From IMG/VR virus record IMGVR_UViG_3300031774_000001: 64,000 nt of DNA; one strand, 5' to 3'. Both the position numbers and the translations under genes were made by a program. The DNA comes from a virus. Shown here piece after piece: positions 5,604-31,887 of this stretch; position 1 is the stretch's first letter, and the number at the start of each line of letters is the position of its first letter. The notes beneath the pieces are model-generated. The model did no database searches. It was not told where the DNA came from and worked only from the letters and a program-made list of their open reading frames with translations.

Positions 5604-6975
5604 TTCAGATAGATTAGAAACAACTATCTTAAATAATCTTTTCTTTCACGAAGATTATGCTAGAAAAGTATTACCTTTCTTAAAAGAAGATTACTTTCCA
5701 TTACGAACTGATAAGATTTTATTTACAGAAATATATAAGTTTGTTGAGAAGTATAATAATATACCAACAAAAGAATCTATTACAATTGAATTAGGGCAAA
5801 GAAAAGATATTAATGAAGATGAAATTAATACATTAAAAGATAATATTAATTCTATAACTAAAATAGATTCCGATCCTAAATGGTTGTTAGATGTAACTGA
5901 AAAGTTTTGTAAAGATAGAGCAGTACATAATGCTGTATTAGATGGTATTAGAATTTTAGATAAGAAAGATACTAAAAGAACACCAGAAGCAATACCTAGT
6001 ATATTAGCAGACGCATTAGCAGTATCTTTTGACCAACATATAGGTCACGATTATATAGATGACGCTGATAGAAGATTTAAATGGTATCATACTAAAGAAA
6101 CAAAATATCAATTTGATTTAGATTATATGAATAGAATAACCAAAGGTGGTATTCCAAGTAAGACTTTGAATATTGCATTGGCAGGCACAGGTGTAGGTAA
6201 GTCTTTGTTTATGTGTCATTGTGCAAGTGCTTATTTGGCACAAGGTTTAAATGTATTGTATATCACTTTAGAAATGGCAGAAGAAAGAATTGCTGAAAGA
6301 ATTGACGCAAACTTATTAGATGTAACTATGGACGATTTACATACAATGCCAAAAGATTTATATGATAATAAAATAGAGAAGATAAGACAGAAGACTGGTG
6401 GTAAATTAATTATTAAAGAATATCCAACAGCGTCTGCTCATAGTGGACACTTTAGAGCATTGTTTAATGAACTTGCATTAAAGAAAAGTTTTAAACCAGA
6501 TGTAGTGTTCATAGATTATTTAAATATATGTGCGTCAAGTAGATTTAAAGGTGGTAATATAGGTTCTTATTTCTATATCAAAGCAATTGCAGAAGAATTA
6601 AGAGGACTTGCAGTAGAATTTAATGTACCATTGTTTTCTGCTACACAAACAACAAGAACTGGTTTTATGAGTACAGATATAGGACTAGAAGATACAGCAG
6701 AAAGTTTTGGATTACCAGCAACAGCAGACTTTATGTTTGCAATCATATCAAATGAGGATTTAGAAGCATTAGGACAGTTAAAAATTAAACAATTGAAGAA
6801 TAGATATAACGATCCAGGTATTAATAGGTCATTTATTATAGGTGTTGATAGAGCAAAAATGAGATTGTATGACGTAGGTCAACAAGCACAAAACATAGTT
6901 GACTCAAATCAACAAGAAGAACAACCAAAAGAAAAAGATATCGCTTACGATAAGTTTTCGGATTTTAAAGTATAA
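5581..6975 (+). CDS. gp41: DnaB-like replicative helicase
   Basis: LAGTGVGKS, ITLEMAEE, IDYLNIC, SATQTTR, QLKNRY. Confidence 0.96.
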   Translation: MVQQSFHNSDRLETTILNNLFFHEDYARKVLPFLKEDYFPLRTDKILFTEIYKFVEKYNNIPTKESITIELGQRKDINEDEINTLKDNINSITKIDSDPKWLLDVTEKFCKDRAVHNAVLDGIRILDKKDTKRTPEAIPSILADALAVSFDQHIGHDYIDDADRRFKWYHTKETKYQFDLDYMNRITKGGIPSKTLNIALAGTGVGKSLFMCHCASAYLAQGLNVLYITLEMAEERIAERIDANLLDVTMDDLHTMPKDLYDNKIEKIRQKTGGKLIIKEYPTASAHSGHFRALFNELALKKSFKPDVVFIDYLNICASSRFKGGNIGSYFYIKAIAEELRGLAVEFNVPLFSATQTTRTGFMSTDIGLEDTAESFGLPATADFMFAIISNEDLEALGQLKIKQLKNRYNDPGINRSFIIGVDRAKMRLYDVGQQAQNIVDSNQQEEQPKEKDIAYDKFSDFKV

Positions 6976-7526
6976 TGGATACTCAACCAATTTTTACACT
7001 AGATATATGGAAGAAATATAATTTTTTAAATGATGATGAAATAGATTTAGTAACTAATAGTATTTTACAAAAAGATTTATTAGATTATAATTTCTTTAAA
7101 GGTTCTGCTAAGTCAACATACGTTGCTATGCAAGAACAAAACCCTAACATTTTAGATTTTCATAGTGATATACAAAAAAAAATTTTAAAAGAAGTACCAA
7201 TAGCTGCACCTAATCAAAGAATGGCAGACTCTTGGTGTAATATACAAGGTAGAGATAGTACATTAGAGTGGCATAATCATCCTAATTCAGTTATTTCTGG
7301 TATTATATTTCTAAAATGTGATGAACATAGTAGCAAGTTAGTCTTTAAAAATCCACTTACTCCAAGGCCACCAACTGCTGTTTCACCACACGAACAAATT
7401 TATGAATTAACACCTGAAAAAGGACTATTGGTAATGTGGCCTAGTTATTTAATGCACGGTTCAGGTGGTAGTGTTAATCAAAGTGATGAAAGGATAGTAT
7501 TAAGTTTTAATACGTACTGGAAATAA
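6975..7526 (+). CDS. 2OG-Fe(II) oxygenase-like protein
   Basis: WHNHPNS, WPSYLMH and RIVLSFN motifs. Confidence 0.8.
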   Translation: MDTQPIFTLDIWKKYNFLNDDEIDLVTNSILQKDLLDYNFFKGSAKSTYVAMQEQNPNILDFHSDIQKKILKEVPIAAPNQRMADSWCNIQGRDSTLEWHNHPNSVISGIIFLKCDEHSSKLVFKNPLTPRPPTAVSPHEQIYELTPEKGLLVMWPSYLMHGSGGSVNQSDERIVLSFNTYWK

Positions 7527-17636: not shown

Positions 17637-17664
17637 AGGGGCAATCCTCTATAGGGTTGCCCTT
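17637..17664 (+). terminator. GC-rich stem-loop (terminator or processing hairpin)
   Basis: AGGGGCAATCCT-CTAT-AGGGTTGCCCTT. Confidence 0.6.
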
Positions 17665-17671
17665 ATAAATA
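17664..17671 (+). promoter_or_regulatory. T4-type late promoter
   Basis: TATAAATA abutting the hairpin. Confidence 0.75.
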
Positions 17672-17733: not shown

Positions 17734-18195
17734 ATGGCAGATAAAAAAGTCACACAGCTTACCGATTTAGGTAACGCATTAGCGAGTGTAGACCTGTTTC
17801 ACGTAATAGATGATCCATCAGGCACACCGATAAACAAAAAAGTATCAGCGGCAAATGTATTTAATAACGTACCAACGTTTTTAGGTCTTGCTCAAGCATC
17901 CCAATCATTAACAGGCACAGGTTCTGGAACTTTAGTTGCAGATGTAGAAAGTGCAGTTACAGAAGTAGAAGCAACTTCAGGAACAGCGGCAGTATCTTTA
18001 GCAGACGGCACAAGCGGTCAAGTTAAAACGTTTATAGATACAGCAACAGCAGGTACTAACGCAATAACTATAACACCAGCAAATTTAAGAGGCGGAACAA
18101 CCGTAACTTTAAATGCGCCAGGTGAAACAGTTACTTTATTATTTAAAAATTCAAATTGGAACGTAATTGCAGGTCACGGATACGCAGTTGCATAA
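17734..18195 (+). CDS. probable virion structural/decoration protein
   Basis: MADKKVTQLT N-terminus; Ala/Thr/Gly-rich beta-type composition. Confidence 0.65.
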   Translation: MADKKVTQLTDLGNALASVDLFHVIDDPSGTPINKKVSAANVFNNVPTFLGLAQASQSLTGTGSGTLVADVESAVTEVEATSGTAAVSLADGTSGQVKTFIDTATAGTNAITITPANLRGGTTVTLNAPGETVTLLFKNSNWNVIAGHGYAVA

Positions 18196-18216
18196 TATAT
18201 AATATAGGAGATAATT

Positions 18217-18438
18217 ATGGATATAAATTTGGAACAACTTACCTCGGAGAAACTTGGTCTACAAAAAGACTTTGATACTTTAGGTAAAAATATAAAACAA
18301 GTTGAAACTGATTTGGGTCAGATGAAAGCAAATTTAAATGCAATCAATGGCGCTATTCAACAAGTTAATAAATTAATAGGAATGGCTGGAGGAGATACAA
18401 CAAATCCAGTTAAAAAAGAAGATGATAAAAAAGTTTAA
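18217..18438 (+). CDS. coiled-coil hypothetical protein
   Basis: Heptad pattern; GGAG RBS. Confidence 0.7.
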   Translation: MDINLEQLTSEKLGLQKDFDTLGKNIKQVETDLGQMKANLNAINGAIQQVNKLIGMAGGDTTNPVKKEDDKKV

Positions 18439-18550
18439 GATTTTTTATGAAGATAAAGACTTGGACGATTTTGAGGAAGAAGTAATCGCTGATTGTCCTG
18501 AAGAGGACACAGCAAAAGAAAAGGAAAAAACAAAAAATGAAAACGTTTAA
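18422..18550 (+). CDS. 42-aa acidic peptide with CTS-like N-terminus (not in ORF track)
   Basis: MIKKFKIFYEDKDLDDFEEE... Confidence 0.5.
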   Translation: MIKKFKIFYEDKDLDDFEEEVIADCPEEDTAKEKEKTKNENV

Positions 18551-18962
18551 ACAACATATTACAGAAGACGGCAAGATGGTTGGCACAGCTACATCTAACG
18601 CTGTTGAAGATGGTAATTTAGGCGCTCATAACATTTCCGATCCAGAAGTATTAAATAGAGTTAATGCTTTTGTAGGTTCTATTGCAGACGTAGAATTCAT
18701 TAAACCACAACAAGCGGTAGATAGTTTAAGAGAAAAACTAAACCGAATAGGTTTAACTGTTTCTCCAGTTACAATGGAAGGAACATCTGGAAAAGTTAGT
18801 GCGAAAGTTAGTCAATTTGGTGGAAGATTTGGGAAAGATACTGATGGTTCTGATTTAAATGATGATGGTATATCACACAAAAAATCTGGCGGTCTAAATT
18901 TAGAAGTTAGTTATGAAACTTTAAAGAACGGTACATCCAAGGTCTACGCTAAGTTAGTGTAG
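18537..18962 (+). CDS. probable internal head protein
   Basis: Starts MKTFKQHITE, like the T4 IP capsid-targeting sequence. Confidence 0.7.
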   Translation: MKTFKQHITEDGKMVGTATSNAVEDGNLGAHNISDPEVLNRVNAFVGSIADVEFIKPQQAVDSLREKLNRIGLTVSPVTMEGTSGKVSAKVSQFGGRFGKDTDGSDLNDDGISHKKSGGLNLEVSYETLKNGTSKVYAKLV

Positions 18963-18968
18963 GTCAAA

Positions 18969-19331
18969 ATGTTTGAAGAGATAACCAAAGATAATTGGTT
19001 GCTATTTGCAAGCAAAAATTATAGTAATCCTACATTGGAAACCAATGTAGAGTTTTTGGAAGATATTAAAAGATTTAAATATCTTAAAAGGTTATTTCGT
19101 AAGTATAAGACTACAGGTGAAGTTAAAATAAGATTAATTATTAATCACATTGTAGTATTACAAAATGTTTTTAGTGCAGATGTAGCGATAACTTTATTAT
19201 TATTTAAGATAGATAGAGAATATTGGTCAGTATTAAAAACAGTATTGAACTATCTTAAATTACTTTATGAACACGAAATGGGTGATGTTGAAGAAGATGA
19301 AAAGATAAAACAAATGTTAAAGGAACTTTAA
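18969..19331 (+). CDS. conserved T4-like hypothetical protein
   Basis: Y.NP...EF.EDIKRFKYLKRL...RLIINH motif. Confidence 0.75.
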   Translation: MFEEITKDNWLLFASKNYSNPTLETNVEFLEDIKRFKYLKRLFRKYKTTGEVKIRLIINHIVVLQNVFSADVAITLLLFKIDREYWSVLKTVLNYLKLLYEHEMGDVEEDEKIKQMLKEL

Positions 19332-19810
19332 TGGCTAGTAGAGCAGTAGATATGTTAATAACTTACCGAGTAGTTAAACTATTGGTAACACCTTGGGAGA
19401 AGCAAGAAGCATTTAAACAAGGTATTATTGATAAAAAAGGTACTGTATTAAGACCTAATAAGACATTAAAAACAACTAAAGATAAAAAAGCATATACTTA
19501 TTTACATAGATTTGTTTTTAATATGAAAAGACTATTTGCAAAAGTAGGATTAGGTAGTAAGTTTGGTTCTTTTTTTGGTGCTATGGCAATGATATTGAGA
19601 GAAGATAATAGATTAATGACACACAAAGACGCTATAGAAGCAGGTGTTGTTTCATATTTAAAAGAAACTAATCAGTATGATAATATGTTAAATGAAGTAA
19701 GAGATATACCAGACATAGAAGATGAACCTGTGATGACTTGTTTAGGTGTGGGTATCTATGAACAAAATAATAAACTAGTATCGGAGTACGAATATGCCAA
19801 AACATTATAA
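19331..19810 (+). CDS. conserved T4-like hypothetical protein
   Basis: KLLVTPWEK..AFK.GIIDKKG...HRFVFNMKR. Confidence 0.75.
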   Translation: MASRAVDMLITYRVVKLLVTPWEKQEAFKQGIIDKKGTVLRPNKTLKTTKDKKAYTYLHRFVFNMKRLFAKVGLGSKFGSFFGAMAMILREDNRLMTHKDAIEAGVVSYLKETNQYDNMLNEVRDIPDIEDEPVMTCLGVGIYEQNNKLVSEYEYAKTL

Positions 19811-20126
19811 AGATATGATGGATGAAATCATCAACAAGATTGATGAAGATGATAAAAAAGAAGTCAAAAAAGAAGACGCACCAGCAAATGCAGTAGCACA
19901 CGGTGGCGTAGATATGAATCCAACAGGTAAGAAAAGAGTTATGGGTACTTTAAAAAGAAAAGTACAAGAGAGTGATGATAACAATAATGTTGTATTGAAA
20001 GGTGTTTATAGTGTACTAAATAAACTTGAAGAAAAGATTGATGAATTAAGTGGAGTTGTGAAAGAAGAAATTAAAATTGAAACACCTAAAAGAAAAAAGA
20101 CTATTAAAGAAAAAGCAAGACTATGA
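19794..20126 (+). CDS. hypothetical protein
   Basis: EDAPANAV motif, coiled coil. Confidence 0.7.
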   Translation: MPKHYKDMMDEIINKIDEDDKKEVKKEDAPANAVAHGGVDMNPTGKKRVMGTLKRKVQESDDNNNVVLKGVYSVLNKLEEKIDELSGVVKEEIKIETPKRKKTIKEKARL

Positions 20127-20404
20127 AAAGTTTTAAAGAATTTATAGGTACAACAGGTGTTAGAATAGGAAACTATTCAAATGTACAACCTATAGCAAGT
20201 TTAGGTGATGTGCCACCTAAAAAAAGAGCGGGTGGTAAAAATGTTAGGGGTGTTGGATTACACGCAAATTATACAAGTGCTATGAATCAAAGACCTTTTA
20301 CAAATGCTGCTCCGAAAAAAAAGAAAGACGAAAATACTATGGGTGGTATGGTTCACGTAAGAGGTGCCCAACCAACATCTAGTATGAGAACAAGGAAAAA
20401 ATAA
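20123..20404 (+). CDS. basic probable internal head protein
   Basis: Starts MKSFKEFIG. Confidence 0.65.
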   Translation: MKSFKEFIGTTGVRIGNYSNVQPIASLGDVPPKKRAGGKNVRGVGLHANYTSAMNQRPFTNAAPKKKKDENTMGGMVHVRGAQPTSSMRTRKK

Positions 20405-20986
20405 ATGGAACTAATAATAAGTTTAGCAATTAAATTTTGGATGTGGTCAATAGTAATTTTAGTTATTATATTAGGATTAATTATCAATTTATTTGATAAG
20501 AAAAAACCAAAGTGTCATAATTTTAGTTATAAAACAATGCCAGTAATGAGACCCATACCAATAAGAACAAAAGGCAAAGGATTTTTTAAAGGAATACTTT
20601 TATGGTTACTCGGTGTTAGACATTGGGAAATTGTAGAAGATTTTAACTACGAAATAAATGACGTTAAATACGTTATACCAGCAGGTTTTAAATTTGATGG
20701 TGCAAGTATACCAAAATTCTTGCATACATTTTTATCACCAGTTGGAGTACTTTTAATGGGTGGATTGGTACACGATTATGCTTATAAGTATCAGACACTA
20801 TTAAAAATAAATAAGGCAGATACCCTTGGTATTATATCTCAAAAAAGAGCAGACGAAATCTTTAGAGATATTAATATTGGCGTAAATGGTTTCTATCTTA
20901 TGAACTACTTAGCATACTGGTCGTTAAGACTAGGTGGCTTTGTTGCGTGGAATAAACACCGTAAAGTCAACGCTAAGATTAAGTAA
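20405..20986 (+). CDS. DUF1353-family protein with N-terminal TM helix
   Basis: IPAGFKFDGASIP...LVHDYAY...ADEIF. Confidence 0.8.
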   Translation: MELIISLAIKFWMWSIVILVIILGLIINLFDKKKPKCHNFSYKTMPVMRPIPIRTKGKGFFKGILLWLLGVRHWEIVEDFNYEINDVKYVIPAGFKFDGASIPKFLHTFLSPVGVLLMGGLVHDYAYKYQTLLKINKADTLGIISQKRADEIFRDINIGVNGFYLMNYLAYWSLRLGGFVAWNKHRKVNAKIK

Positions 20987-21001
20987 AAAGGAGAAAAACT
21001 A

Positions 21002-21160
21002 ATGGAGTTTATAACAGGAAGAATTAAAGAACTAACATCTTTACACGGTGCAGTATTAATCGGTTTAGGTGTTGTGGTTTTATTTTTTAGTCCCATTGCT
21101 AAAATTGCGGCTTGGGCTGCAATTGCTTACGGCGCTTGGGCAATTTTAAAGAAAGACTAA
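21002..21160 (+). CDS. 52-aa two-TM protein, holin candidate (not in ORF track)
   Basis: AAGGAG RBS; two hydrophobic helices; charged C-terminus. Confidence 0.6.
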   Translation: MEFITGRIKELTSLHGAVLIGLGVVVLFFSPIAKIAAWAAIAYGAWAILKKD

Positions 21161-21164
21161 AACA

Positions 21165-21641
21165 ATGTTTGGCACAATGAAAATGGTAATGGTTGTAATA
21201 ATGATAGGCGGACTTGCTGGAGCAGGTATGTATGTTATGAAATTACGATCCGATAATGCCATTTTAAAAGCCAATCAAATTAAACTTGAAGAAGCGGTCA
21301 GCTCTCAAAAGGAGCTGATTGCTAAACAGCAAGAAGACTTTAAAGAAATTTTAAAAGCAAATAAAAAATTTAATGAGTTAGTGAACGCTCTTAAAAAAGA
21401 TATAGATGATTTAGATAATAGATTTAACAAAGGTGGAAGAGATTTTGGTAAACTTGCAATAGAAAAAACAGAAGCAATTGAAAGAATAGTTAATGGCGCA
21501 AGTGATAAAGCAATCAGATGTGTTGAGATAGCAGGTGGGTCACCACTTACAGAAGAAGAAATCAACGCAACAAAAAAATCAGAAATTAATAGAGAGTGTC
21601 CGTCAATAGCGAACCCAAATTATGTACCGTATAATAATTAG
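21165..21641 (+). CDS. inner-membrane spanin-like protein
   Basis: N-terminal TM helix, long coiled coil, C-terminal Cys residues. Confidence 0.6.
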   Translation: MFGTMKMVMVVIMIGGLAGAGMYVMKLRSDNAILKANQIKLEEAVSSQKELIAKQQEDFKEILKANKKFNELVNALKKDIDDLDNRFNKGGRDFGKLAIEKTEAIERIVNGASDKAIRCVEIAGGSPLTEEEINATKKSEINRECPSIANPNYVPYNN

Positions 21642-21996
21642 TATCATTGCTGTTTTAATACTTACTGGTTGTTCAATCGGTGAGAAACGACTTAAAATAT
21701 TTAAGTTAGAAGAACCTAGGCAGGAGTTAGACTTACAGAAACCTACAATGCCTGAACTAGAAAAGTTGAGATGGATTATTATTACTTCTGACAATGCAGA
21801 AGAAGTATTCCAAAAGATGGAAGCAGAAGGACTTGATCCAGTATTATTTGGATTAAGTGATAAAGACTTCCAATTAATTGCAAAAAACTTTGCTCAAATA
21901 AGAGCACATTTAAAACATACAAATGATTTACTTGAACAATATAAAGAATATTATGAACCAAGTGATGAGAAAAAAGAAGAAAAGGAGAGTGAATAA
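21622..21996 (+). CDS. outer-membrane spanin-like lipoprotein
   Basis: Lipobox LTGC; overlaps the i-spanin candidate. Confidence 0.6.
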   Translation: MYRIIISIIAVLILTGCSIGEKRLKIFKLEEPRQELDLQKPTMPELEKLRWIIITSDNAEEVFQKMEAEGLDPVLFGLSDKDFQLIAKNFAQIRAHLKHTNDLLEQYKEYYEPSDEKKEEKESE

Positions 21997-22208
21997 TGAC
22001 CGATTCATATAAAGGCGCAGACGGCAATGAAATATATTTTATAGACCATAGATATGACTCAAAATTAAAAAAAAGAGTTGCAGAAAAACGAACCCCTAGA
22101 GCTAAAACTGCTATCTATAATTTACAAGGTCTAGCTATGCAACCTGAAGTTAAAAAACAAGAGCAGAAAATTATAACAGCAGTTGAAGACAGTAAAAAAG
22201 GAAAGTAA
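21996..22208 (+). CDS. hypothetical protein
   Basis: ORF track; TAATG coupling. Confidence 0.6.
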   Translation: MTDSYKGADGNEIYFIDHRYDSKLKKRVAEKRTPRAKTAIYNLQGLAMQPEVKKQEQKIITAVEDSKKGK

Positions 22209-22211
22209 ACA

Positions 22212-23408
22212 ATGAAAATATTATGTATATTATATGATGACCCAAAAGACGGAATGCCAAAATCATATCCAGTCAAAGACTTACCAAAATTAGAAAAGTA
22301 TCCAGATGGTATGACATTACCATCTCCTAAAGGAAGAGATTTCAACGCAGGAGAATTATTAGGTTGTGTTTCTGGTGAATTAGGATTAAGAAAATTTTTA
22401 GAAGACGCAGGACATACTTTAGTAGTTACGTCTGATAAAGACGCTGATGGTTGTACAGCAGATAAAGAATTAGTTGACGCAGATGTAGTCATTTCACAAC
22501 CATTTTGGCCTTACTATCTAACAAGAAAAAGAATAGAGAGTGCTCCAAAATTAAAGATGGCAATTACAGCAGGAATTGGTTCTGACCACGTAGATTTACA
22601 AGCGGCTATGGATCATAAAGTTGATGTAGTTGAAGTAACTTATTGTAATAGTAGAAGTGTTGCGGAACATATTGTTATGATGATACTAGCACTAGTTAGA
22701 GATTATCACAATCAATATAAAATAGTTAACGAAGGTGGTTGGCATATCGCAGACGCAGTTAAACGTTCTTATGATGTAGAAGGTATGCATATAGGAACAA
22801 TTGCCGCTGGTAGAATTGGTTATGATATGTTAAGAAAAATGAAACCATTTGATGTACACTTACATTACTTTGATAGACATAGATTGCCAGAAGAAAAAGA
22901 AAAAGAATTAGGTTTAATCTATCACGAATCAGTAGAAGATATGGTTAAAGTTTGTGATGTAATTAATATAAGTTGTCCTTTACATCCTGAAACTGAACAT
23001 ATGTTTAATGATGATTTAATTAGTAAGTGTAAAAAAGGTGCTTACATAATTAATACAGCAAGAGGAAAGATTTGTGATAAGGATGCTATTGCAAGAGCAG
23101 TAGAGTCAGGACAATTAAGTGGCTACGCAGGTGATGTATGGTTTCCACAACCAGCACCTAACGACCACGTATGGAGAACAATGCCTCATCACGGTATGAC
23201 ACCACACACTTCAGGTACTTCACTATCAGCGCAGACTAGATATGCAGATGGTGTAAGAGAAATACTTGAATGCTTTTTTGATGGTTCAGAAATTAGAAAT
23301 CAATATCTAATTGTTAAAGATGGAGACCTTGCAGGTATGGGTGCTCACTCTTACTCAAAAGGAACTGCTACTGGTGGTTCAGAAGAGGCGGCAAAGTTTA
23401 GGAAGTAA
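22212..23408 (+). CDS. fdh: NAD-dependent formate dehydrogenase (metal-independent)
   Basis: Follows the Pseudomonas sp. 101-type FDH along its length: ISQPFWP, TAGIGSDH, AAGRIG, DRHR, NTARG, GDVWFPQPAP, MTPH.SG, SYSKG.ATGGSEEAAKF. Confidence 0.95.
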   Translation: MKILCILYDDPKDGMPKSYPVKDLPKLEKYPDGMTLPSPKGRDFNAGELLGCVSGELGLRKFLEDAGHTLVVTSDKDADGCTADKELVDADVVISQPFWPYYLTRKRIESAPKLKMAITAGIGSDHVDLQAAMDHKVDVVEVTYCNSRSVAEHIVMMILALVRDYHNQYKIVNEGGWHIADAVKRSYDVEGMHIGTIAAGRIGYDMLRKMKPFDVHLHYFDRHRLPEEKEKELGLIYHESVEDMVKVCDVINISCPLHPETEHMFNDDLISKCKKGAYIINTARGKICDKDAIARAVESGQLSGYAGDVWFPQPAPNDHVWRTMPHHGMTPHTSGTSLSAQTRYADGVREILECFFDGSEIRNQYLIVKDGDLAGMGAHSYSKGTATGGSEEAAKFRK

Positions 23409-23409
23409 A

Positions 23410-23574
23410 ATGGACGCAGATATATTATTAATGATAAGTAGATTATGGCCGATTTTTGTAGCATTTATATTATTAATAGTTACTTTAGCACAAGCACACT
23501 ATAGAATTAAAGTGTTGGAAGAAAAAGTTAAAGTAGCATTTGAACTTATTAATAAGTTAACAGACAGAAAATGA
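23410..23574 (+). CDS. small membrane protein
   Basis: One TM helix plus short coiled coil. Confidence 0.65.
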   Translation: MDADILLMISRLWPIFVAFILLIVTLAQAHYRIKVLEEKVKVAFELINKLTDRK

Positions 23575-23660
23575 AGACAGTATATACCTTAGCGGGTATT
23601 GTCGCAGTATTAGGAATTGTTATAGGTATAAGTGGTTATTTTATATTTCTACTTATTTAA
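23571..23660 (+). CDS. 29-aa TM peptide
   Basis: MKTVYTLAGIVAVLGIVIGISGYFIFLLI; ATGA overlap. Confidence 0.4.
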   Translation: MKTVYTLAGIVAVLGIVIGISGYFIFLLI

Positions 23661-25281
23661 TAGAATAACAATTAATCTTTTCTTTTTTACCTTTTACGGT
23701 ACAAATACCTAGTTTATAAAACTTAAAGTCTAAATCTTTTTTAGTATTTTGAGATATTACTATTGTAGTATTGAAATCTTTACTCTTACCTTCTAATCTA
23801 CTTGCCAAATTAACAGCGTCACCAATGACAGAATAATCAAAACGTTGTTCAGACCCCATATTACCTACAAGACACTCGCCAGTATTGATACCTATACCAA
23901 TGTTTAAAGGTGGGTCAAACTCTCTACTCTTATTCATTTTTCTAACTGTTTCTCTCATTTCGTATGCAGATAATACTGCTAGTTTTTTGTGTTGAGGTGT
24001 ATCAAGTGGTGCGTTCCAAAATGCCATTATACAATCGCCCATATACTTATCAATAGTACCACCATTTTTTAATATTATACCCGTCATTGCAGTTAAAAAT
24101 TTGTTAACATATCGGGTAAGTTTTTCTGGATTACCTTTCATAGATTCCGATATAGGAGTAAAGCCACGTATATCAGAAAATAAAAACGTCATTTCTTTTC
24201 TTTCACCACCAAGTTTTAATAGAGATGGATTCTTTTGTAGTTTCTTAACCATATCAGGAGATAGGTAGTGTTCAAATTGTTTCTTAATTTGTAGTCTTAA
24301 TTTATTTTCTTTTGCATAGTTTTGATACGTTAATTGACCCCATATAATAGAACCTATTACAAGAGGACTAAACCAATCAGTTATGATTAAGTGTTGTGTC
24401 CATAGATAAGAACTTGCAAGTGTTAAATCAAATAAGTATCCACCAAACCATATCGCAGACCATATCACACTACATCTAGGTATAACTATGAGAAAGAATA
24501 GAGCACCTAATATTATAAATGCTAATTCACTATGTGGTAACCAATAAGGTCTACTAATAAAATTACCTGACAATAAAGTTTCTGTACTGATTGCCATAAT
24601 TTCGTGTGTGTTCTTTAAACCATTCGGAGTAGTTACAAACGTTGAACCTTTGAACGTTGTACCTATGAAAACTATTTTACCTTTTACAGACGACCAATCT
24701 TTATCAGTAAAATCTATTCTAGGAATATGGTGTCTGAAATCTATCCAAATAGTATCTTCTGCTGATGTTTTTGCATTGATAACTTTTAAGATAACATCAG
24801 GTATGGATTTATCAAGTGGTAATTTTCTTATAGTACCATCTATATCAACTGGTACAGATACATTACCTATTGCAAGTGCTTTACGTGAAATACTTTGTAG
24901 ATTTTTTACTTCATCCGTTTCAGTAAGTATGACTGGATATTTTGAAATCATTTTTAAAAATACTTCATCACCACCTAATCTATCTTTATGTGGGAAGACT
25001 ACTTGAAGAACTACTAGAGCGGCACCATTTTTATATGCGTTAATTATAACACGACCAAGTAAATCTCTTTTCCACGGCCATTGTCCATTCTTTTTTAATG
25101 CTTTATCTGAAATGTCTATTAGAACTAAACTCCTTGATTCATAATTCTTACCAAATGATTGGTAGAAATCAAAGGTGTTTAGCTTTGCTGTCTGTAGCAG
25201 TACTGGATTTGATAAGTATATTCCTAGCAATATTATCAAAGTTAGATATACAGTCCACGATTTAGCCAATATTTTAATCAT
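23653..25281 (-). CDS. CHASE2-domain class III adenylate cyclase
   Basis: N-terminal TM; CHASE2 (LIDISD..L...GQWPWKR, DIDGTIR); 3 TMs; FSDIRGFT, DKYMGDCIMAFW, FDYSVIGDAVNLASRLE, VKGK. Confidence 0.93.
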   Translation of the reverse strand: MIKILAKSWTVYLTLIILLGIYLSNPVLLQTAKLNTFDFYQSFGKNYESRSLVLIDISDKALKKNGQWPWKRDLLGRVIINAYKNGAALVVLQVVFPHKDRLGGDEVFLKMISKYPVILTETDEVKNLQSISRKALAIGNVSVPVDIDGTIRKLPLDKSIPDVILKVINAKTSAEDTIWIDFRHHIPRIDFTDKDWSSVKGKIVFIGTTFKGSTFVTTPNGLKNTHEIMAISTETLLSGNFISRPYWLPHSELAFIILGALFFLIVIPRCSVIWSAIWFGGYLFDLTLASSYLWTQHLIITDWFSPLVIGSIIWGQLTYQNYAKENKLRLQIKKQFEHYLSPDMVKKLQKNPSLLKLGGERKEMTFLFSDIRGFTPISESMKGNPEKLTRYVNKFLTAMTGIILKNGGTIDKYMGDCIMAFWNAPLDTPQHKKLAVLSAYEMRETVRKMNKSREFDPPLNIGIGINTGECLVGNMGSEQRFDYSVIGDAVNLASRLEGKSKDFNTTIVISQNTKKDLDFKFYKLGICTVKGKKEKINCYSIK

Positions 25282-25287
25282 ATACTA

Positions 25288-25313
25288 TATTTAGTACAGA
25301 TATCTTATAAATA
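25288..25313. promoter_or_regulatory. back-to-back late promoters
   Basis: TATAAATA at 25306-25313 (+) and ACTAAATA read on the - strand toward the cyclase. Confidence 0.6.
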
Positions 25314-25337
25314 TATACATCAACGAGAGAGAGAAAA

Positions 25338-25796
25338 ATGAGATTAATTAGTTTTATTTTAGCAGTATTATTGTTCGTTCCTAGTGCCTACGCAAGTGAA
25401 TTGGGGTTTAAATTTCATAGTCCATCATTTTCAGGTCAAGGTAAGTCTTCACACTATCTAACGATAGAGAACATTGAAAAGACTAGGAAAGACGCCATAA
25501 AAGCAGCCGAAAAAGCGGCGGCAGATAAAGTAATAGCAGACGCTAAAAATACAGCAATAGCAAAATTCAAAGCAAATGTTGAATCAAGATTTTATACAGC
25601 ACTTGCTAAACAAATTACAGACAACGTTTTTGGTACAGATGGTCTACAACAAGACTCTGGAACATTTACATCACCTATTGGTGGTGAAGTTGTTGAGTGG
25701 ACAACACCATCAGGTACAGGTAATGTAGTTGTAACTGTTACAGAATCAGACGGAACTGTAACGACATTTACAATGCCTAAAGAGGATAACTCATAA
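25338..25796 (+). CDS. csgF: curli assembly protein CsgF-like
   Basis: Signal peptide, then SELGFKFHSPSFSG (CsgF N-terminal F.NP.FGG motif); C-terminal V.VT...G.VT. Confidence 0.85.
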   Translation: MRLISFILAVLLFVPSAYASELGFKFHSPSFSGQGKSSHYLTIENIEKTRKDAIKAAEKAAADKVIADAKNTAIAKFKANVESRFYTALAKQITDNVFGTDGLQQDSGTFTSPIGGEVVEWTTPSGTGNVVVTVTESDGTVTTFTMPKEDNS

Positions 25797-26965
25797 TGTT
25801 TAAATACATAGGAATATTCCTACTTTCTTTAATGTTAGTGGGTTGTGCAGGTAAGCCAAAGTTTGATGTAAGAACTCAAACAGTTGCTTATAAAGATTTG
25901 TCAGTTATATCAGCACCGAAAGGCGATCCTGTTATAATTGCTGTCTATGACTTTTTAGATATGACAGGTCAAAAGAAACCTGGAGGAAACTTTGCGTCTA
26001 TGAGTACAGCAGTAACTCAAGGTTCATATCAGTTGTTGATTAAAGCATTACAAGACGCAGGAGAAGGCAAATGGTTTAGAGTAGTAGAACGAGCAAGTTT
26101 GCCAAGTTTATTACAAGAAAGAAAATTAATACGTTCTACAAGACAATCAATTAATGGAGAAGGTGCAGAACCATTACCACCATTATTATTTGCAGGTGCA
26201 TATATAACAGGTGGTATTGTAGGATATGATAGTGATATTAAATCAGGTGGTTTAGGTGCTAGAATATTAGGTATTCAAAGCAACAAACAATTTAGACAAG
26301 ATATAGTTACTATTATATTAAGACTAGTTAATGTACAAACTGGTGAAGTAGTTATAACAACTACTGTTGAAAAGACTATTGTTTCAACAATGACAGGTGG
26401 AGATATATTTAAGTACTTTGATACTGATACAATGTTATTAGAAGTTGAAGCAGGATATGCTAAAAACGAACCAGTAACTTTTGCAGTAAGAAAAGCAATA
26501 GAAAAAGGTGTAGTAGATTTAATTAATCAAGGTGCAGAAAAAGGACTATGGGAGTTTGAACCAATAGTTGAAGTGCCTGAAATTAAAGACTACCTAGATG
26601 AAACTGGTACAAGTGATATTAAAGTTGATATGGGTGAAGTAAAACCAGAAAAAACATATGAAGATTTTAAGAAAGAAAAGAAAGCTAGAAAAGAATTAAA
26701 GAAAGCACAAAAACTTGAAGTAAAAAATTATAATAAAAAACACGGTACAAAATTTAAAACTTGGGACGAATATCAAGCACATTTAGCACACTTAATAGCA
26801 ATTGAAGCTAAAGAAGTAGAAAAAGAAAACCGTAAGAACGGTATACAAGAGAAAATAACTGAAGAAGAAGAGTGGAACCAAGTAGACAAAGATACAGAAA
26901 CAAAGGAGAATGCTGATGAAAAAGATAATGATAGCGATAGTGATTCTTCTGGCGACAACGATTAA
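25796..26965 (+). CDS. csgG: curli secretion channel CsgG-like lipoprotein with charged C-terminal extension
   Basis: Lipobox LVGC; AVYDFLDMTGQKK, STAVTQG, WFRVVER, LLQERKLIR, GGIVGYDSD, NEPV. Confidence 0.93.
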   Translation: MFKYIGIFLLSLMLVGCAGKPKFDVRTQTVAYKDLSVISAPKGDPVIIAVYDFLDMTGQKKPGGNFASMSTAVTQGSYQLLIKALQDAGEGKWFRVVERASLPSLLQERKLIRSTRQSINGEGAEPLPPLLFAGAYITGGIVGYDSDIKSGGLGARILGIQSNKQFRQDIVTIILRLVNVQTGEVVITTTVEKTIVSTMTGGDIFKYFDTDTMLLEVEAGYAKNEPVTFAVRKAIEKGVVDLINQGAEKGLWEFEPIVEVPEIKDYLDETGTSDIKVDMGEVKPEKTYEDFKKEKKARKELKKAQKLEVKNYNKKHGTKFKTWDEYQAHLAHLIAIEAKEVEKENRKNGIQEKITEEEEWNQVDKDTETKENADEKDNDSDSDSSGDND

Positions 26966-27992
26966 AAGTTTCGCAGGTAATTCGGTCTGGATTCAACAAA
27001 ATAACCAAGATAGCGACGGATCAGTCTTTATAAAACAAGATGGTACTGGTAATAAAGTAGGTATATCTACTTCAGCACCATTTGTAATAGATGGTGAGAA
27101 CTTAACACTTATTATCAGACAAATAGGTGACAATAATGTAACCTCAATGTCTTCACACCTTGAATTGTTTGGTGAAGATATGACTGTAGATTTATATATC
27201 AAAGGTGACGCTAACGTATTAAGATTAGAAGGTGATACAGATTCAACTGGTCATTGGTATGATTTTGATGTAACTGGCAATTCAAATACAATGAGAGTTG
27301 ATGGTAATGATGATGACAATACTCATAAGACTAATATTGATTTAGATATTGTTGGAGACTCAAATGAGTTTTGGTTAAAAAGTAGAGGTGATGGTCACTT
27401 CATCTATGTTCTTATGTCAGGTGATTCAAACCGAGTACATTTTTATACTCATACAGACTCAGCAGGTTTCAATACAAACTCTAACGTATCAATTGGTCCT
27501 AACGTTGCTTCACACGGACAGTTTGCAGACACTTCAGGAAGTGAAGGTGCAACACTTGACGCATACATAATAGGAAATTCAAACAGATTAGATAGTTCCT
27601 CATACGGCACAGGTAACTATCAAGTACACGACATTATAGGTAATTCAAATATTATAGACTTACACGCTTCTCATAGTGGCGACTATGATTTAGCTACAAT
27701 TAAAGGTAACAATAACTATTTAAAAACTGTTATCAATGGCAACAGTAATGTTTTAAGAATACATCAAGAAGGTGGTAGTAATACTGCTAGAATTTATGTT
27801 TATACTTCTGAAGCAGCTGTTAATATGGCACAAACAGGTGGTAGTAATACATCAAACATTACCATATCAGGTGATTCAATTTACGATTATACATTAAACT
27901 TTACACAAAACGGTTCAGATAATTGTACATATTCATTTAATAGAAACACACAAACAGCAGACGTAACAGCAACAGTAGCTAATGGGTGTTAA
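26910..27992 (+). CDS. secreted curlin-like repeat protein
   Basis: Signal peptide; about 12 imperfect Q/I-x-G-x-x-N repeats (QDGTGN, QIGDNN, IVGDSN, IIGNSN, QEGGSN, QTGGSN). Confidence 0.75.
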   Translation: MLMKKIMIAIVILLATTIKSFAGNSVWIQQNNQDSDGSVFIKQDGTGNKVGISTSAPFVIDGENLTLIIRQIGDNNVTSMSSHLELFGEDMTVDLYIKGDANVLRLEGDTDSTGHWYDFDVTGNSNTMRVDGNDDDNTHKTNIDLDIVGDSNEFWLKSRGDGHFIYVLMSGDSNRVHFYTHTDSAGFNTNSNVSIGPNVASHGQFADTSGSEGATLDAYIIGNSNRLDSSSYGTGNYQVHDIIGNSNIIDLHASHSGDYDLATIKGNNNYLKTVINGNSNVLRIHQEGGSNTARIYVYTSEAAVNMAQTGGSNTSNITISGDSIYDYTLNFTQNGSDNCTYSFNRNTQTADVTATVANGC

Positions 27993-28127
27993 ATGAAAGC
28001 ATTTTTAACTTTCATTTTAATATTCGGTGGTATATGTTTAGCAAGTGGTATAATATGTACTATAATATCCTTATACTGGCCAGAAAAATGGAAAAGAAAG
28101 AAAAAAGAAGTTAAATTTAAAAGATGA
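27993..28127 (+). CDS. 44-aa TM protein with basic tail (not in ORF track)
   Basis: MKAFLTFILIFGGICL...KRKKKEVKFKR; coupled to both neighbours. Confidence 0.55.
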   Translation: MKAFLTFILIFGGICLASGIICTIISLYWPEKWKRKKKEVKFKR

Positions 28128-30268
28128 AAAAATTATTATTTTTAGTATCGTTTCTAGTACTCTTCTGTACTAGTGTATTTTCTCAAACTGTAGGAACAGT
28201 TATAGGACAAATGGGTACAACTTGGAATGAAAGAGGTGGTCAAATCCAAAATACTACAATGGGTTATGAGTTGCAAATGTTTGACTTTCTACAAACTGGT
28301 GAAGATGGTGGTATGATATTAAAGTATGCTGATAATACTAAATTTACAATGGGACCAGGTACAGAATTAACTATTGATGAATATTCTTTTGATACTTCTG
28401 TTATACCAATTCAACTTGCAATGAACGTATCAGTTAATGTTGGTACATTTACATACGAATCAGGACAAGTATCTACTTTAGGTGGTGAAGTTAATATAAC
28501 TGCTGGTAATGCCACAATTACAGTACAAGGTACTGCTTTTTCAGGAACAGTTGACTCAATGGGTGGGGCAACAATTACTTTACTACCTGATAGTAATGGT
28601 GAAGTAGGACAAGTAACTGTATCTAATGACGCAGGTTCTCAAACAATAACTAACGCTTTCAATTCAGTAACCGTTATATCAAATGATTTAGCACCAACAC
28701 CTCCAAAAATAGAAACTAATAAACAAAATATTATTGAGTTAGATAAATTTGAAGAAGAAATAAAAGATGAATCACAAAAGACTTTTGGTGATGTAGAAAA
28801 AAAATCTGAAATGTCTAAAGAAGAAACTAAAGCACAGGAGATGGAAGAGGCAATCATTGCTGAAGAAGCAAATATAGTAGAAGATAATAATACAATTGTT
28901 GCTACAGACTTATCTGTTGGTGAAACAGACGCAATAATTGAAATGGAATCAGTAGAAGAAAGTAATTTAGTTGAAGTTATAGAAGAAGTTGATACATCTT
29001 ATTATGATTCCTGGGAAGAAGATTTAAAAGATTGGGGTTATATAGATGAAGATAATCAGATTTCAGTTTGGGATGCTGAAGGTGAACAAACTATGGATTG
29101 GGATGACGCAAAGAAAATGTATGCAGAAATGGATCAAGCATACTTTGACGCCATTGATTGTTCAGATTGTACTTGGGATACTATTAATTGGGATGAGGTA
29201 GATTGGGACGCAGTTGATTGGGATGCTTACTATGACGAGTATAATGAATTATTAGAAGCATATGGATTAACTTCTTGGGCAGTTGAAGAAGAAGAGGTTA
29301 ACGTAGTTGAAGAAACTAAAGAAGAAACAGAAGCTAGTACAGTTGAAGGATATACTTGGGAAGATTTTGCTTTAGATGATGACTACTATAACAATGCAGA
29401 ATACAAAGCGGCAGGTGGTCCTCCAACATTAACTGTACAAAACTATTGTGAGTACAATGGATACGAAGACTATTGGTGCAACCAAGACTATGTTGATTAC
29501 TTAAATGATTGGTATAAAAATGACTGGACTTTAAAAGTAACTAACGATAGTTGGACTAAAGAATCTAAAAAGATATGGGGTAAATTATATGGTTGGTGTG
29601 GTAGTTATCCTAATTATAAAATGTGTGAAAATCAACCTAGACCTTGGAAGATGAAAGACTTAAAAAATATGTATGTAACTGACTGGAGTTGGTCAGATTG
29701 GAGTACATATTGGGACGCAGTATATGATTGGTGGTACACAGGTTATGATTATAACAATGAAGATGACCAAAGTAATTGGGAAGATGAATATAATTATGAA
29801 GATGATTATGATATAGACGCAGAATTAGAATTGTTATTAGCAAGTTATGATAAAGAAGACTGTTTAAATTATGGATACTATTGGGACAATGCCAAGTCTA
29901 GTTGTGGTACTGAATGGGTAGACAATAGTGGTTCAGAAACGCAAGTAACTGCTAGTGGTGAAACATTAAACTATTCTACTGGAGATGTAACTCAAACCTT
30001 AACTACAACAGATGGTGTAACAGGTGCGACTTCAAGTGCAACTTCAACAGGAAGAGTATCAACGTTAGACAATGATTTTAATGCTCAAGCGTCAACTTCT
30101 GGTGATTACACAATCATAAATAGATATAACGACAACCATAGAGCTTATATAAAGACTGAAACGAGTAAAGAAGCAGATATACAGATTTTACAAGATTCAG
30201 AAGCTCAACACATTGACGTAGGGAATTCCACTACACAAAATAATATTACAATAATACAAACGGATTAA
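28124..30268 (+). CDS. secreted FecR-domain protein with long acidic Trp/Tyr-rich region
   Basis: Signal peptide; D.LQTGEDG...YADNT.FTMGP.TELTIDEY...ATITVQGTAF (FecR domain); ends NNITIIQTD. Confidence 0.85.
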   Translation: MKKLLFLVSFLVLFCTSVFSQTVGTVIGQMGTTWNERGGQIQNTTMGYELQMFDFLQTGEDGGMILKYADNTKFTMGPGTELTIDEYSFDTSVIPIQLAMNVSVNVGTFTYESGQVSTLGGEVNITAGNATITVQGTAFSGTVDSMGGATITLLPDSNGEVGQVTVSNDAGSQTITNAFNSVTVISNDLAPTPPKIETNKQNIIELDKFEEEIKDESQKTFGDVEKKSEMSKEETKAQEMEEAIIAEEANIVEDNNTIVATDLSVGETDAIIEMESVEESNLVEVIEEVDTSYYDSWEEDLKDWGYIDEDNQISVWDAEGEQTMDWDDAKKMYAEMDQAYFDAIDCSDCTWDTINWDEVDWDAVDWDAYYDEYNELLEAYGLTSWAVEEEEVNVVEETKEETEASTVEGYTWEDFALDDDYYNNAEYKAAGGPPTLTVQNYCEYNGYEDYWCNQDYVDYLNDWYKNDWTLKVTNDSWTKESKKIWGKLYGWCGSYPNYKMCENQPRPWKMKDLKNMYVTDWSWSDWSTYWDAVYDWWYTGYDYNNEDDQSNWEDEYNYEDDYDIDAELELLLASYDKEDCLNYGYYWDNAKSSCGTEWVDNSGSETQVTASGETLNYSTGDVTQTLTTTDGVTGATSSATSTGRVSTLDNDFNAQASTSGDYTIINRYNDNHRAYIKTETSKEADIQILQDSEAQHIDVGNSTTQNNITIIQTD

Positions 30269-30891: not shown

Positions 30892-31887
30892 ATGTCAAGT
30901 TATATAGATTTAAAGTATATTAATTCAATCTCTTCAGGATTGGATAAGTTTAAAAAGAAAACAGATTATCTTTTCAATTTTAGGTGTCCACATTGTGGAG
31001 ACTCACAGAAAAGTAAGACTAAAGCAAGAGCATATCTTTATAGAGTAAAAAACGATATGTTCTTTAAATGCCACAATTGTGGTATGGGTCAGAATTTAGC
31101 AAATTTCATTAAATTCTTGGATCCTAAAAAATACGGAGAATACTTATTAGAGAGATACAAGGGATCGGCACCATCCACGCCCCAACCTAAATTTGACTTT
31201 AAACCTACAAAATTTGAAGAAACAAATTTATTAGATTCCTGTACTAAAGTAAGTACGTTAAAAGACGGACATCCTGTAAAGGAGTACGTAAAGAAAAGAT
31301 TGATACCTCCACAATATTATGAGATAATTTATTTTGTTGACAAATTTCACAATTTTGCCAATAAAGTGAAACCAGGAACTTTTAAAGAAAGATATGAACA
31401 CCCTAGATTAATTATACCTTTCTTTGATGTAACTGGTAAGTTGTTTGCATTTCAAGGCAGAGCTTTTGGAAAAGAACAACCAAAATATGTTACTATTAAA
31501 CTTGATGAAACAAAACAAAAAGTATATGGACTTGAACGTGTAAATTATCAAAAACATATTTACATAGTTGAAGGACCACTTGATAGTTTGTTTTTAGATA
31601 ATTGTTTAGCGGCAGGTGGTGCTGACTTAACATTGAGAGTGTCAAGTGACCAAGTTACATATATATTTGACAACGAACCTCGTAATAAAGAAATCATAAA
31701 AAGGATGTACGCAGTAGTTGAAAAGGATTACAACGTAGTTGTTTGGCCAAATGATGTGCAACTTAAAGATGTAAATGAAATGATTATGAGTGGTATGAAA
31801 AGAGAAGAGTTAATAGATATTATAAGTAAGAATACATTTAGCAAATTAGAGGCATTAACGAAATTAAACTATTATAAGAAATGTTAG
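30892..31887 (+). CDS. gp61: DNA primase
   Basis: Zn finger RCPHCGDS...CHNC; TOPRIM EGPLDS, FDNEPRN, KDVN. Confidence 0.95.
   Translation: MSSYIDLKYINSISSGLDKFKKKTDYLFNFRCPHCGDSQKSKTKARAYLYRVKNDMFFKCHNCGMGQNLANFIKFLDPKKYGEYLLERYKGSAPSTPQPKFDFKPTKFEETNLLDSCTKVSTLKDGHPVKEYVKKRLIPPQYYEIIYFVDKFHNFANKVKPGTFKERYEHPRLIIPFFDVTGKLFAFQGRAFGKEQPKYVTIKLDETKQKVYGLERVNYQKHIYIVEGPLDSLFLDNCLAAGGADLTLRVSSDQVTYIFDNEPRNKEIIKRMYAVVEKDYNVVVWPNDVQLKDVNEMIMSGMKREELIDIISKNTFSKLEALTKLNYYKKC

Follow-up and report, generated by a model that had tools for sequence, protein, structure and literature searches.

A predicted NAD-dependent formate dehydrogenase resident in the genome of a T4-like marine myophage

Why would a phage genome carry an intact gene for formate dehydrogenase (FDH), does the gene belong there, and what could it do in an infected cell? 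These questions are raised by a single gene in the IMG/VR record IMGVR_UViG_3300031774_000001, of which we analyzed a stretch of 64,000 nucleotides (the window). An initial annotation of this DNA had proposed an auxiliary metabolic gene (AMG) that taps host C1 oxidation for energy. The window has a uniform strand bias and a GC content of ~31%, and its PHROG matches identify a T4-type DNA polymerase, UvsX, and a replicative helicase. Class Ia NrdA and NrdB represent nucleotide metabolism, and comparison with Pelagibacter phage HTVC008M gives nucleotide matches of 76%. On these sequence grounds, we assign the window to a T4-like pelagimyophage.

The FDH gene lies in a variable island. The nucleotide match to HTVC008M stops at window position 20986, which corresponds to position 117033 of the HTVC008M record and to the end of gp144. 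Three small ORFs separate the DUF1353 gene gp144 of HTVC008M from the primase gene gp148 downstream of it; in the window, the homologues of gp144 and gp148 are ~10 kb apart, and between them lie, in order, a 52-aa ORF, a spanin pair, a 70-aa ORF, FDH, a 54-aa ORF, a cyclase, CsgF, CsgG, a curlin-repeat protein, and a 714-aa protein. The features of the island are as follows.

20405 to 20986, plus strand: DUF1353 / 'tail assembly chaperone' gene (Pfam DUF1353; phrog_1158), homologue of HTVC008M gp144 and left anchor of the variable island
21165 to 21641, plus strand: inner-membrane spanin-like protein with an N-terminal membrane helix followed by a charged region (phrog_739, Rz-like spanin, E 1e-8)
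21622 to 21996, plus strand: outer-membrane spanin-like lipoprotein with lipobox LTGC, its start overlapping the preceding gene (phrog_812, Rz-like spanin, E 3.8e-7)
21996 to 22208, plus strand: 70-aa ORF directly 5´ of FDH, weakly conserved (56-75% identity among relatives), no Pfam or PHROG family
22212 to 23408, plus strand: predicted NAD+-dependent FDH of the single-subunit metal-free type, 398 aa (ATG to TAA ORF; NF005750; PDB 2gsd_A; key residues)
23410 to 23574, plus strand: 54-aa ORF with a single hydrophobic helix, beginning 2 nt past the FDH stop codon, no PHROG family
23653 to 30268, no strand assigned: curli/cyclase block adjoining FDH and separate from it (Pfam: CHASE2 adenylate cyclase, CsgF, CsgG, curlin-repeat protein; 714-aa protein)
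23653 to 25281, minus strand: CHASE2 adenylate cyclase (Pfam)
28124 to 30268, strand not given: 714-aa protein within the curli/cyclase block, no family match
30892 to 31887, plus strand: DNA primase, homologue of HTVC008M gp148 and right anchor of the variable island (NCBIfam and Pfam primase matches well under the curated cut-offs; HTVC008M gene order)

The lysis-like and small ORFs that the initial annotation had placed around FDH are thus present, the former as two spanin matches, the second with a lipobox. The curli/cyclase block corresponds to the viral T8SS (curli) region described earlier (Zaragoza-Solas 2020, PMC7029224; Wittmers 2022, PMC9599517). Elsewhere, the window encodes a GMP-reductase homologue, a GDP-mannose dehydratase, and several 2OG oxygenases.

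The identity of the enzyme is given by family, structure, and residue comparisons. Pfam recognizes 2-Hacid_dh and 2-Hacid_dh_C, which are both halves of the D-2-hydroxyacid dehydrogenase fold, together with NAD_binding_2. Against the NCBIfam equivalog NF005750 ('NAD-dependent formate dehydrogenase', EC 1.17.1.9), for which the curated cut-off is 329 bits, the protein scores 652 bits over model positions 3-385 of 386, about four times the score of the runner-up NCBIfam family (155 bits). The top solved structure is 2gsd_A (E 1.4e-193, query residues 2-398 against chain residues 3-399), and the enzymes of Moraxella sp. C-1 (2GSD/3FN4) and Pseudomonas sp. 101 (2NAC/2NAD/2GO1) make up the top structure matches (E 1e-190 to 1e-193); the match is collinear over the full length, and the displayed alignment is free of indels. 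In enzymes of this type, N146, R284, and H332 paired with Q313 are catalytic, P97, F98, and I122 belong to the substrate channel, and an acidic D221 selects NAD+ over NADP+. All eight are present in the window protein at Pseudomonas sp. 101 numbering (P97, F98, I122, N146, D221 in HYFDRHR, R284 in NTARGK, Q313 in FPQPAP, and H332 in MTPHTSG), and the Rossmann GxGxxG motif is found as AAGRIG at residues 198-203. By its equivalog score, catalytic and substrate-channel residues, and Rossmann motif with D221, the protein belongs with the NAD+-dependent FDHs, and the initial reading of an intact, full-length enzyme from the Arg of NTARG, the Gln/His pair of PQP and TPH, and the Asp of DRHR was correct.

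The window protein shares with the Moraxella and Pseudomonas sp. 101 FDHs not only the catalytic and NAD-binding residues and their numbering but also the bacterial N- and C-terminal extensions, and we predict no biochemical difference from them. What distinguishes the window gene is that it is phage-encoded, rich in AT (GC3 18%), and purged of restriction-type words avoided by the phage. Pfam detected no molybdopterin, Fe-S, or membrane family in the protein, and its domains, solely of the 2-Hacid type, set it apart from the Mo/W-dependent FDHs (FdhF/FDH-H type). Its sequence is that of a simple, soluble, cofactor-free enzyme. Function appears to have been retained in phages: 60 full-length viral copies, all free of stop codons, show no variation at the eight key residues, and dN/dS values of 0.06-0.13 among phage copies indicate purifying selection.

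Host contamination or a chimeric assembly could in principle have put a bacterial FDH into a phage contig, and the protein is indeed 92% identical to the copy on a 647-kb contig of a SAR86 single-cell genome. We give this explanation practically no chance, since identical junctions recur in independent contigs. The spanin pair is directly 5´ of FDH in 10 IMG/VR contigs from nine datasets (L001-L005, L007-L009, L057, L066), nine of which also show cyclase or curli genes downstream, and FDH identity in these ten is 88-98%. Other window genes are absent from the 80 cellular FDH loci compared, and no flanking gene is common to those loci and the 80 viral loci. The same observation disposes of the idea that IMG/VR loci lacking window-like genes are misfiled host DNA: their flanking genes are not shared with cellular loci, and terminase, portal, tail sheath, neck, and baseplate proteins are encoded there. 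In addition, dS between the window gene and its closest cellular relative (SAR86) is saturated, at 1.8-2.4, which speaks against both recent capture and an assembly artefact, and 57 public contigs, of up to 173,605 bases, encode exactly this protein (its 90% cluster has 3160 members).

The gene also bears the compositional marks of this phage. Its synonymous codon usage correlates with that of the other window genes at r 0.975, compared with 0.82-0.93 for cellular FDH genes, and its GC3 is 17.8% against 17.9% for window genes. Several short words are depleted from the window, as seen for CATG (0, with 154 expected), CGCG (0, 17 expected), TCGA (1, 28 expected), CCGG (1, 15 expected), GATC (49, 154 expected), and GATGC (7, 37 expected, all seven within GGATGC). 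The six strongly purged words occur once in the window FDH and 4-41 times (median 10) in the 80 cellular FDH genes, and FDHs in other phage lineages obey the purge of their own lineage, with, for example, no GATC in L028-L045. This purge explains the dicodon habit that the initial annotation had noticed, His-Val written as CAC GTA and Asp-Ala as GAC GCA: CAT GTx would create CATG, which is absent from the window, and GAT GCx would create GATGC. In the other window genes, all 68 His codons that precede a codon starting with G are CAC, while cellular FDH genes have CAT GTx and GAT GCx at the same positions. FDH is a genuine, selectively maintained phage gene and not contamination, as had been argued from that habit. 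T4-like genes on both sides, repeated junctions, codon usage, and the site purge locate it in a bona fide phage genome, and its nesting among SAR86/SAR11 homologues, together with the dN/dS values above, indicates a cellular origin with retained function.

The arrangement upstream of FDH bears on how it might be expressed. Two short sequence elements are relevant.

17664 to 17671, plus strand: nearest TATAAATA (T4-type late-promoter word) upstream of FDH
22198 to 22203, plus strand: Shine-Dalgarno-like AAGGAA, 8 nt 5´ of the FDH ATG, read from the sequence, with a putative function in translation initiation

The word TATAAATA occurs seven times in the window, always on the plus strand and each time at or just 5´ of the start of a listed ORF. 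Genes are tightly packed from 17734 to 23574, and the ORF preceding FDH ends 3 nt short of the FDH start codon. A terminator scan of positions 20000-26000 found no plus-strand terminator-like site between FDH and the preceding genes, and a sigma-70 promoter scan around FDH gave fewer sites than shuffled sequence. Because the nearest plus-strand TATAAATA is at 17664 and no plus-strand terminator-like site intervenes, it is plausible that FDH is co-transcribed with the preceding phage genes, including the spanin pair and small ORFs.

The initial annotation did not know FDH as a common phage gene. For deposited phages this holds: tblastn against 50,697 deposited phage records gave no credible phage match, the best hits (44%) being unannotated multi-contig Staphylococcus 'phage' records that are apparently host DNA, and PHROGs contain no FDH-specific family. 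For uncultured marine phages it does not. A viral database search, a check proposed with the annotation, found relatives with 76-98% identity on 109 IMG/VR viral contigs, and FDH is common rather than rare among these phages, occurring in genomes of several architectures and in at least three viral clades, not counting a singleton. In one contig, FDH is directly 5´ of primase without curli genes (L006), and in another it adjoins a GMP-reductase homologue (L010). It precedes a divergent csgF/csgG pair in four loci (L015, L016, L020, L022) and lies between the replicative helicase and the next conserved gene in four others (L025, L026, L055, L062). At 17 loci (e.g. L042, L032), it is located between the gp16-like small terminase and gp17 large terminase genes, accompanied by a PAP2 gene and preceded by gp13/14 neck and gp15 genes. 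It is flanked by nrdA-like and nrdB-like genes in L065, L068, L070, L072-L075, and L077-L080, and L012 is a phage with a different terminase type.

Where did these genes come from? We placed 110 sequences on a maximum-likelihood tree, with four FDHs of larger proteobacterial genomes as the outgroup, in which the marine FDHs form a clade with full support (100/100). The window copy falls in a clade of 42 sequences (V1; support 100/99) with 36 other viral sequences, four SAR86-type genomes that share one common cellular context (L081-L084), and a contig from a Dehalococcoidia bin. Moderate support (86/88) places V1 beside the main SAR86 clade as its sister. The nrd-linked copies fall in another viral clade, which has 10 sequences (100/100) and a long stem; a third viral clade (8 sequences; 96/87) has the main SAR11 clade as its sister; and one further viral contig groups with a Bacteroidetes-bin contig. 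The viral label requires seven changes on the tree, at least five of them forced by well-supported branches. A single SAR86 clade excluding the phages was rejected (AU p 0.0115), which is moderate evidence, given that the group was chosen after inspection of the tree. The topology supports several acquisitions of FDH, as well as exchange between phages and SAR86-type cells.

SAR11 FDHs had been suggested for comparison at the outset; the nearest cellular relatives of the window FDH turned out to be in a SAR86 subgroup (92% identity), with SAR11 sequences at 82-85%, and forcing V1 to group with the main SAR11 clade gives an AU p of 0.19, such that a SAR11 origin is not rejected. The window FDH clusters with the SAR86 subgroup and the phage backbone is SAR11-phage-like; the phage tRNA-Thr matches a SAR11 tRNA at 81% over 69 nt and a SAR86 tRNA at 88% over 41 nt. 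Among 301 sampled Pelagibacteraceae genomes, many of them incomplete, 96 have an NAD-type FDH (a count that includes the unpublished genome G071), and in the wider phylum the gene is rare (5 of 401).

The surroundings of the cellular genes point to a pathway. At the SAR86 locus, a formate-THF ligase gene (FTHFS) is directly upstream of FDH and an HPP membrane protein gene is downstream, together with an MTHFR-like gene and three GcvT-type aminomethyltransferase genes, and the HPP gene accompanies FDH in 50 cellular loci. In SAR86 and SAR11, FDH is the end of a tetrahydrofolate C1-oxidation island. The phage gene encodes the same enzyme, with 82-92% protein identity, but whereas the cellular copies are flanked by formate-THF ligase, HPP, MTHFR-like, and GcvT-type genes, the phage FDH stands alone. 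The cellular genes are those of a route known from SAR11, in which demethylation and C1 oxidation are linked to tetrahydrofolate and the conversion of formate to CO2 comes last; cultured SAR11 Ia strains run this step with a Mo-dependent FDH (fdhF/fdsB/fdhD, plus mobA and moeA) (PMC3160333). In transcriptomes of pelagiphage infection, host THF-oxidation genes, including fdhD, are up-regulated (PMC12753301), which fits a demand for this pathway.

The identity, intactness, residence, selection, spread, and cellular context of the gene give us good confidence that it is a host-derived AMG of a T4-like marine myophage encoding a soluble, single-polypeptide, cofactor-free FDH; we infer its expression, activity, formate source, and benefit. 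In this model, the phage FDH would oxidize formate to CO2 in the infected cell and reduce NAD+ to NADH, the phage having taken only the terminal step of C1 oxidation without the rest of the island. Terminal formate oxidation would be added or restored, and the extra NADH would probably feed respiration. The reaction would probably also pull on the ATP-yielding formate-THF ligase step and release free tetrahydrofolate, and remove formate, including that released by peptide deformylase, which is reported to be a core pelagimyophage gene (PMC7029224); no peptide deformylase was found among the scanned window ORFs of at least 90 aa. The form of the enzyme was probably favored in itself, as one 1.2-kb gene would suffice without the molybdenum cofactor, Fe-S clusters, and maturation factors that fdhF/fdsB/fdhD imply. 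How large a gain in flux would follow in a tiny oligotrophic cell is uncertain, because NAD-FDHs are slow and have a millimolar Km for formate. The neighbors of FDH vary between phage lineages, so no conserved partner points to a single pathway. Since the cellular relatives are in the tetrahydrofolate C1-oxidation island, tapping of host C1 oxidation is the natural reading; of the initial proposal, the intact, host-derived phage metabolic gene and the link to C1 oxidation stand, and the role in energy supply may be taken as its best-supported interpretation.

Other roles have to be weighed against this one. FDH might be a dedicated NADH generator for another phage pathway in nucleotide or sugar metabolism rather than a general energy booster, as could be suggested by its location in one viral clade (L065-L080), with an nrdA-like gene on one side and an nrdB-like gene on the other, by the abutting GMP-reductase homologue in L010, and by the GMP reductase, GDP-mannose dehydratase, and 2OG oxygenases of the window. 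We regard this as unlikely, however: D221 marks a preference for NAD+, ribonucleotide reductase and GMP reductase use NADPH, and other lineages place FDH between the gp16-like and gp17 packaging genes or near spanins, such that the partner is not conserved. A protein kept for something other than formate, be it another 2-hydroxyacid substrate or a non-catalytic role, has a slimmer chance still. The enzyme function is a prediction, and the sole PHROG match is a family of unknown function (phrog_26092, 91 bits), but every FDH-specific residue checked is invariant in the 60 viral copies under strong purifying selection, and the equivalog score far exceeds that of the next family.

A further role comes from the one published account of such a gene. 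Among the genes that Zaragoza-Solas et al. (2020) give as unique to PMP-MAVG-4, a deep-water genome with read recruitment mainly below 200 m, are 'a formate dehydrogenase', a GMP reductase, and heme genes. A single sentence deals with the FDH; it suggests generation of a proton gradient and cites the structure of the molybdenum enzyme FDH-H (PMC7029224). The window is of the same phage type with matching genes, including the GMP reductase and variable-region curli genes, and probably represents PMP-MAVG-4 or a close relative, as judged by gene content. The recruitment from depth would accord with direct generation of a proton gradient in the dark ocean in place of rhodopsin, yet we consider this very improbable, more so than a non-formate role. 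The enzyme cited is a Mo/selenocysteine FDH-H, whereas the window protein is of the soluble D-2-hydroxyacid-dehydrogenase type and matches such families only; any effect on the proton-motive force would be indirect, by way of NADH and the respiratory chain; and the FDH-bearing viral contigs stem from many datasets. By its predicted sequence class, the window protein does not fit the published enzyme class and mechanism: it appears to be a metal-free NAD type, found on 109 viral contigs and of several origins. Apart from this mis-classified mention, our literature search brought up no account of an NAD-type FDH encoded by marine phages, and formate is not mentioned in the treatment of pelagiphage AMGs by Wittmers et al. 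(2022) (PMC9599517).

The enzyme is thus an ordinary one and its presence in this phage type had already been published (PMC7029224), so the gain is incremental; it includes a correction of the literature, in that the phage enzyme is of the metal-free NAD type and not a molybdenum enzyme. More speculatively, the gene of V1, the largest FDH clade, may be maintained mainly by phages, having moved among at least five phage architectures and returned to the SAR86 subgroup, where it would have taken the place of the native gene within the C1-oxidation island; coupled with peptide deformylase, it could close a phage-encoded loop in which formate from nascent proteins yields NADH. We hold this only as a tentative idea, less likely than its opposite, but, if it is true, marine phages would both store and pass on a core enzyme of energy metabolism in two of the most abundant bacteria of the ocean.

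SAR11 and SAR86 dominate the heterotrophs of the ocean, and oxidation of C1 compounds and methyl groups supplies a large share of their energy. The terminal enzyme of C1 oxidation has entered uncultured marine myophages several times, is found in many of them, and is kept under selection. This points to formate oxidation as a limit on phage production in such streamlined cells, or at least as an aid to it. Like psbA, talC, and zwf/gnd in T4-like cyanophages, FDH is a single host-derived metabolic enzyme in a variable region, kept under selection (for the AMG concept, see PMC7029224). It differs from them in acting on heterotrophic C1 oxidation, where theirs serve photosynthesis and the pentose-phosphate pathway, and in lacking a credible match among the 50,697 deposited phage records. 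The phage FDH may be seen as the heterotrophic counterpart to the photosynthesis-linked genes of cyanophages.

Directly upstream of the FDH gene in the window lies an overlapping spanin-like pair, and spanin homologues are found near FDH in a second phage lineage as well (viral contigs L046, L049, L052, L053 and L058). A different arrangement is seen in viral loci L028-L045, which belong to a T4-like lineage unlike that of the window, with a GC content of about 37% and GATC entirely absent. Here, the packaging and neck module, otherwise conserved, contains an insertion of FDH together with a gene for a PAP2-family phosphatase, located between the genes for the gp16-like small terminase and the gp17 large terminase. 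In a long-branched viral clade, FDH sits between a divergent nrdA-like gene and an nrdB-like gene (L065, L068, L070, L072-L075 and L077-L080), the nrdA-like product having about 21% identity to NrdA of the window. FDH is adjoined by a class-3 lipase gene in one locus of this clade, L074, and in another member, L076, it has a GH19 chitinase-like gene on its flank.

Positions of these features and of the late-promoter-like words and SAR86-type copy discussed below:
Window 21165-21996: spanin-like pair, made up of overlapping inner-membrane (phrog_739) and outer-membrane (phrog_812; lipobox LTGC) genes
L042:7979-12212 and L032:3520-11079: FDH and PAP2 gene insertion, example loci
L074:6354-12306: nrd-linked FDH, example locus
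Window 4142, 7958, 15250, 17270, 17664, 25306 and 57310, all + strand: TATAAATA words
L081, about 6001-7197: FDH of a SAR86-type genome

The window (1-64000) lacks, wholly or almost wholly, several short palindromes: CATG (0 versus 154 expected), CGCG (0 versus 17), TCGA (1 versus 28) and CCGG (1 versus 15). GATC is reduced to one third of its expected number, all seven occurrences of GATGC read GGATGC, and CAC is the His codon in 68 of 68 cases preceding a G-starting codon. The word TATAAATA is also under-represented (7 versus 18.6 in shuffles); every copy either coincides with the start of a listed ORF or shortly precedes one, a placement that, together with the shared strand, is consistent with T4-type late promoters.

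Some FDH copies carrying cellular labels, on contigs binned to unrelated phyla, form tight clusters with copies from viruses or SAR11: Dehalococcoidia (L136), Bacteroidetes (L132) and Flammeovirgaceae (L125). These contigs may be phage or SAR11 DNA that was mis-binned in metagenome bins. In one sampled Pelagibacteraceae genome, the FDH match (G064:C2:43569-44729) is broken by seven stop codons (three TGA and four TAA) and is an apparent pseudogene.

The FDH genes of four SAR86-type genomes (L081-L084, single-cell and metagenome) group in the mainly viral clade, apart from other SAR86 copies (AU p 0.0115). They occupy a normal cellular C1 island, with fhs (formate-tetrahydrofolate ligase) upstream and the HPP membrane protein gene downstream, and it could be that a phage-derived copy replaced the FDH of these genomes in situ.
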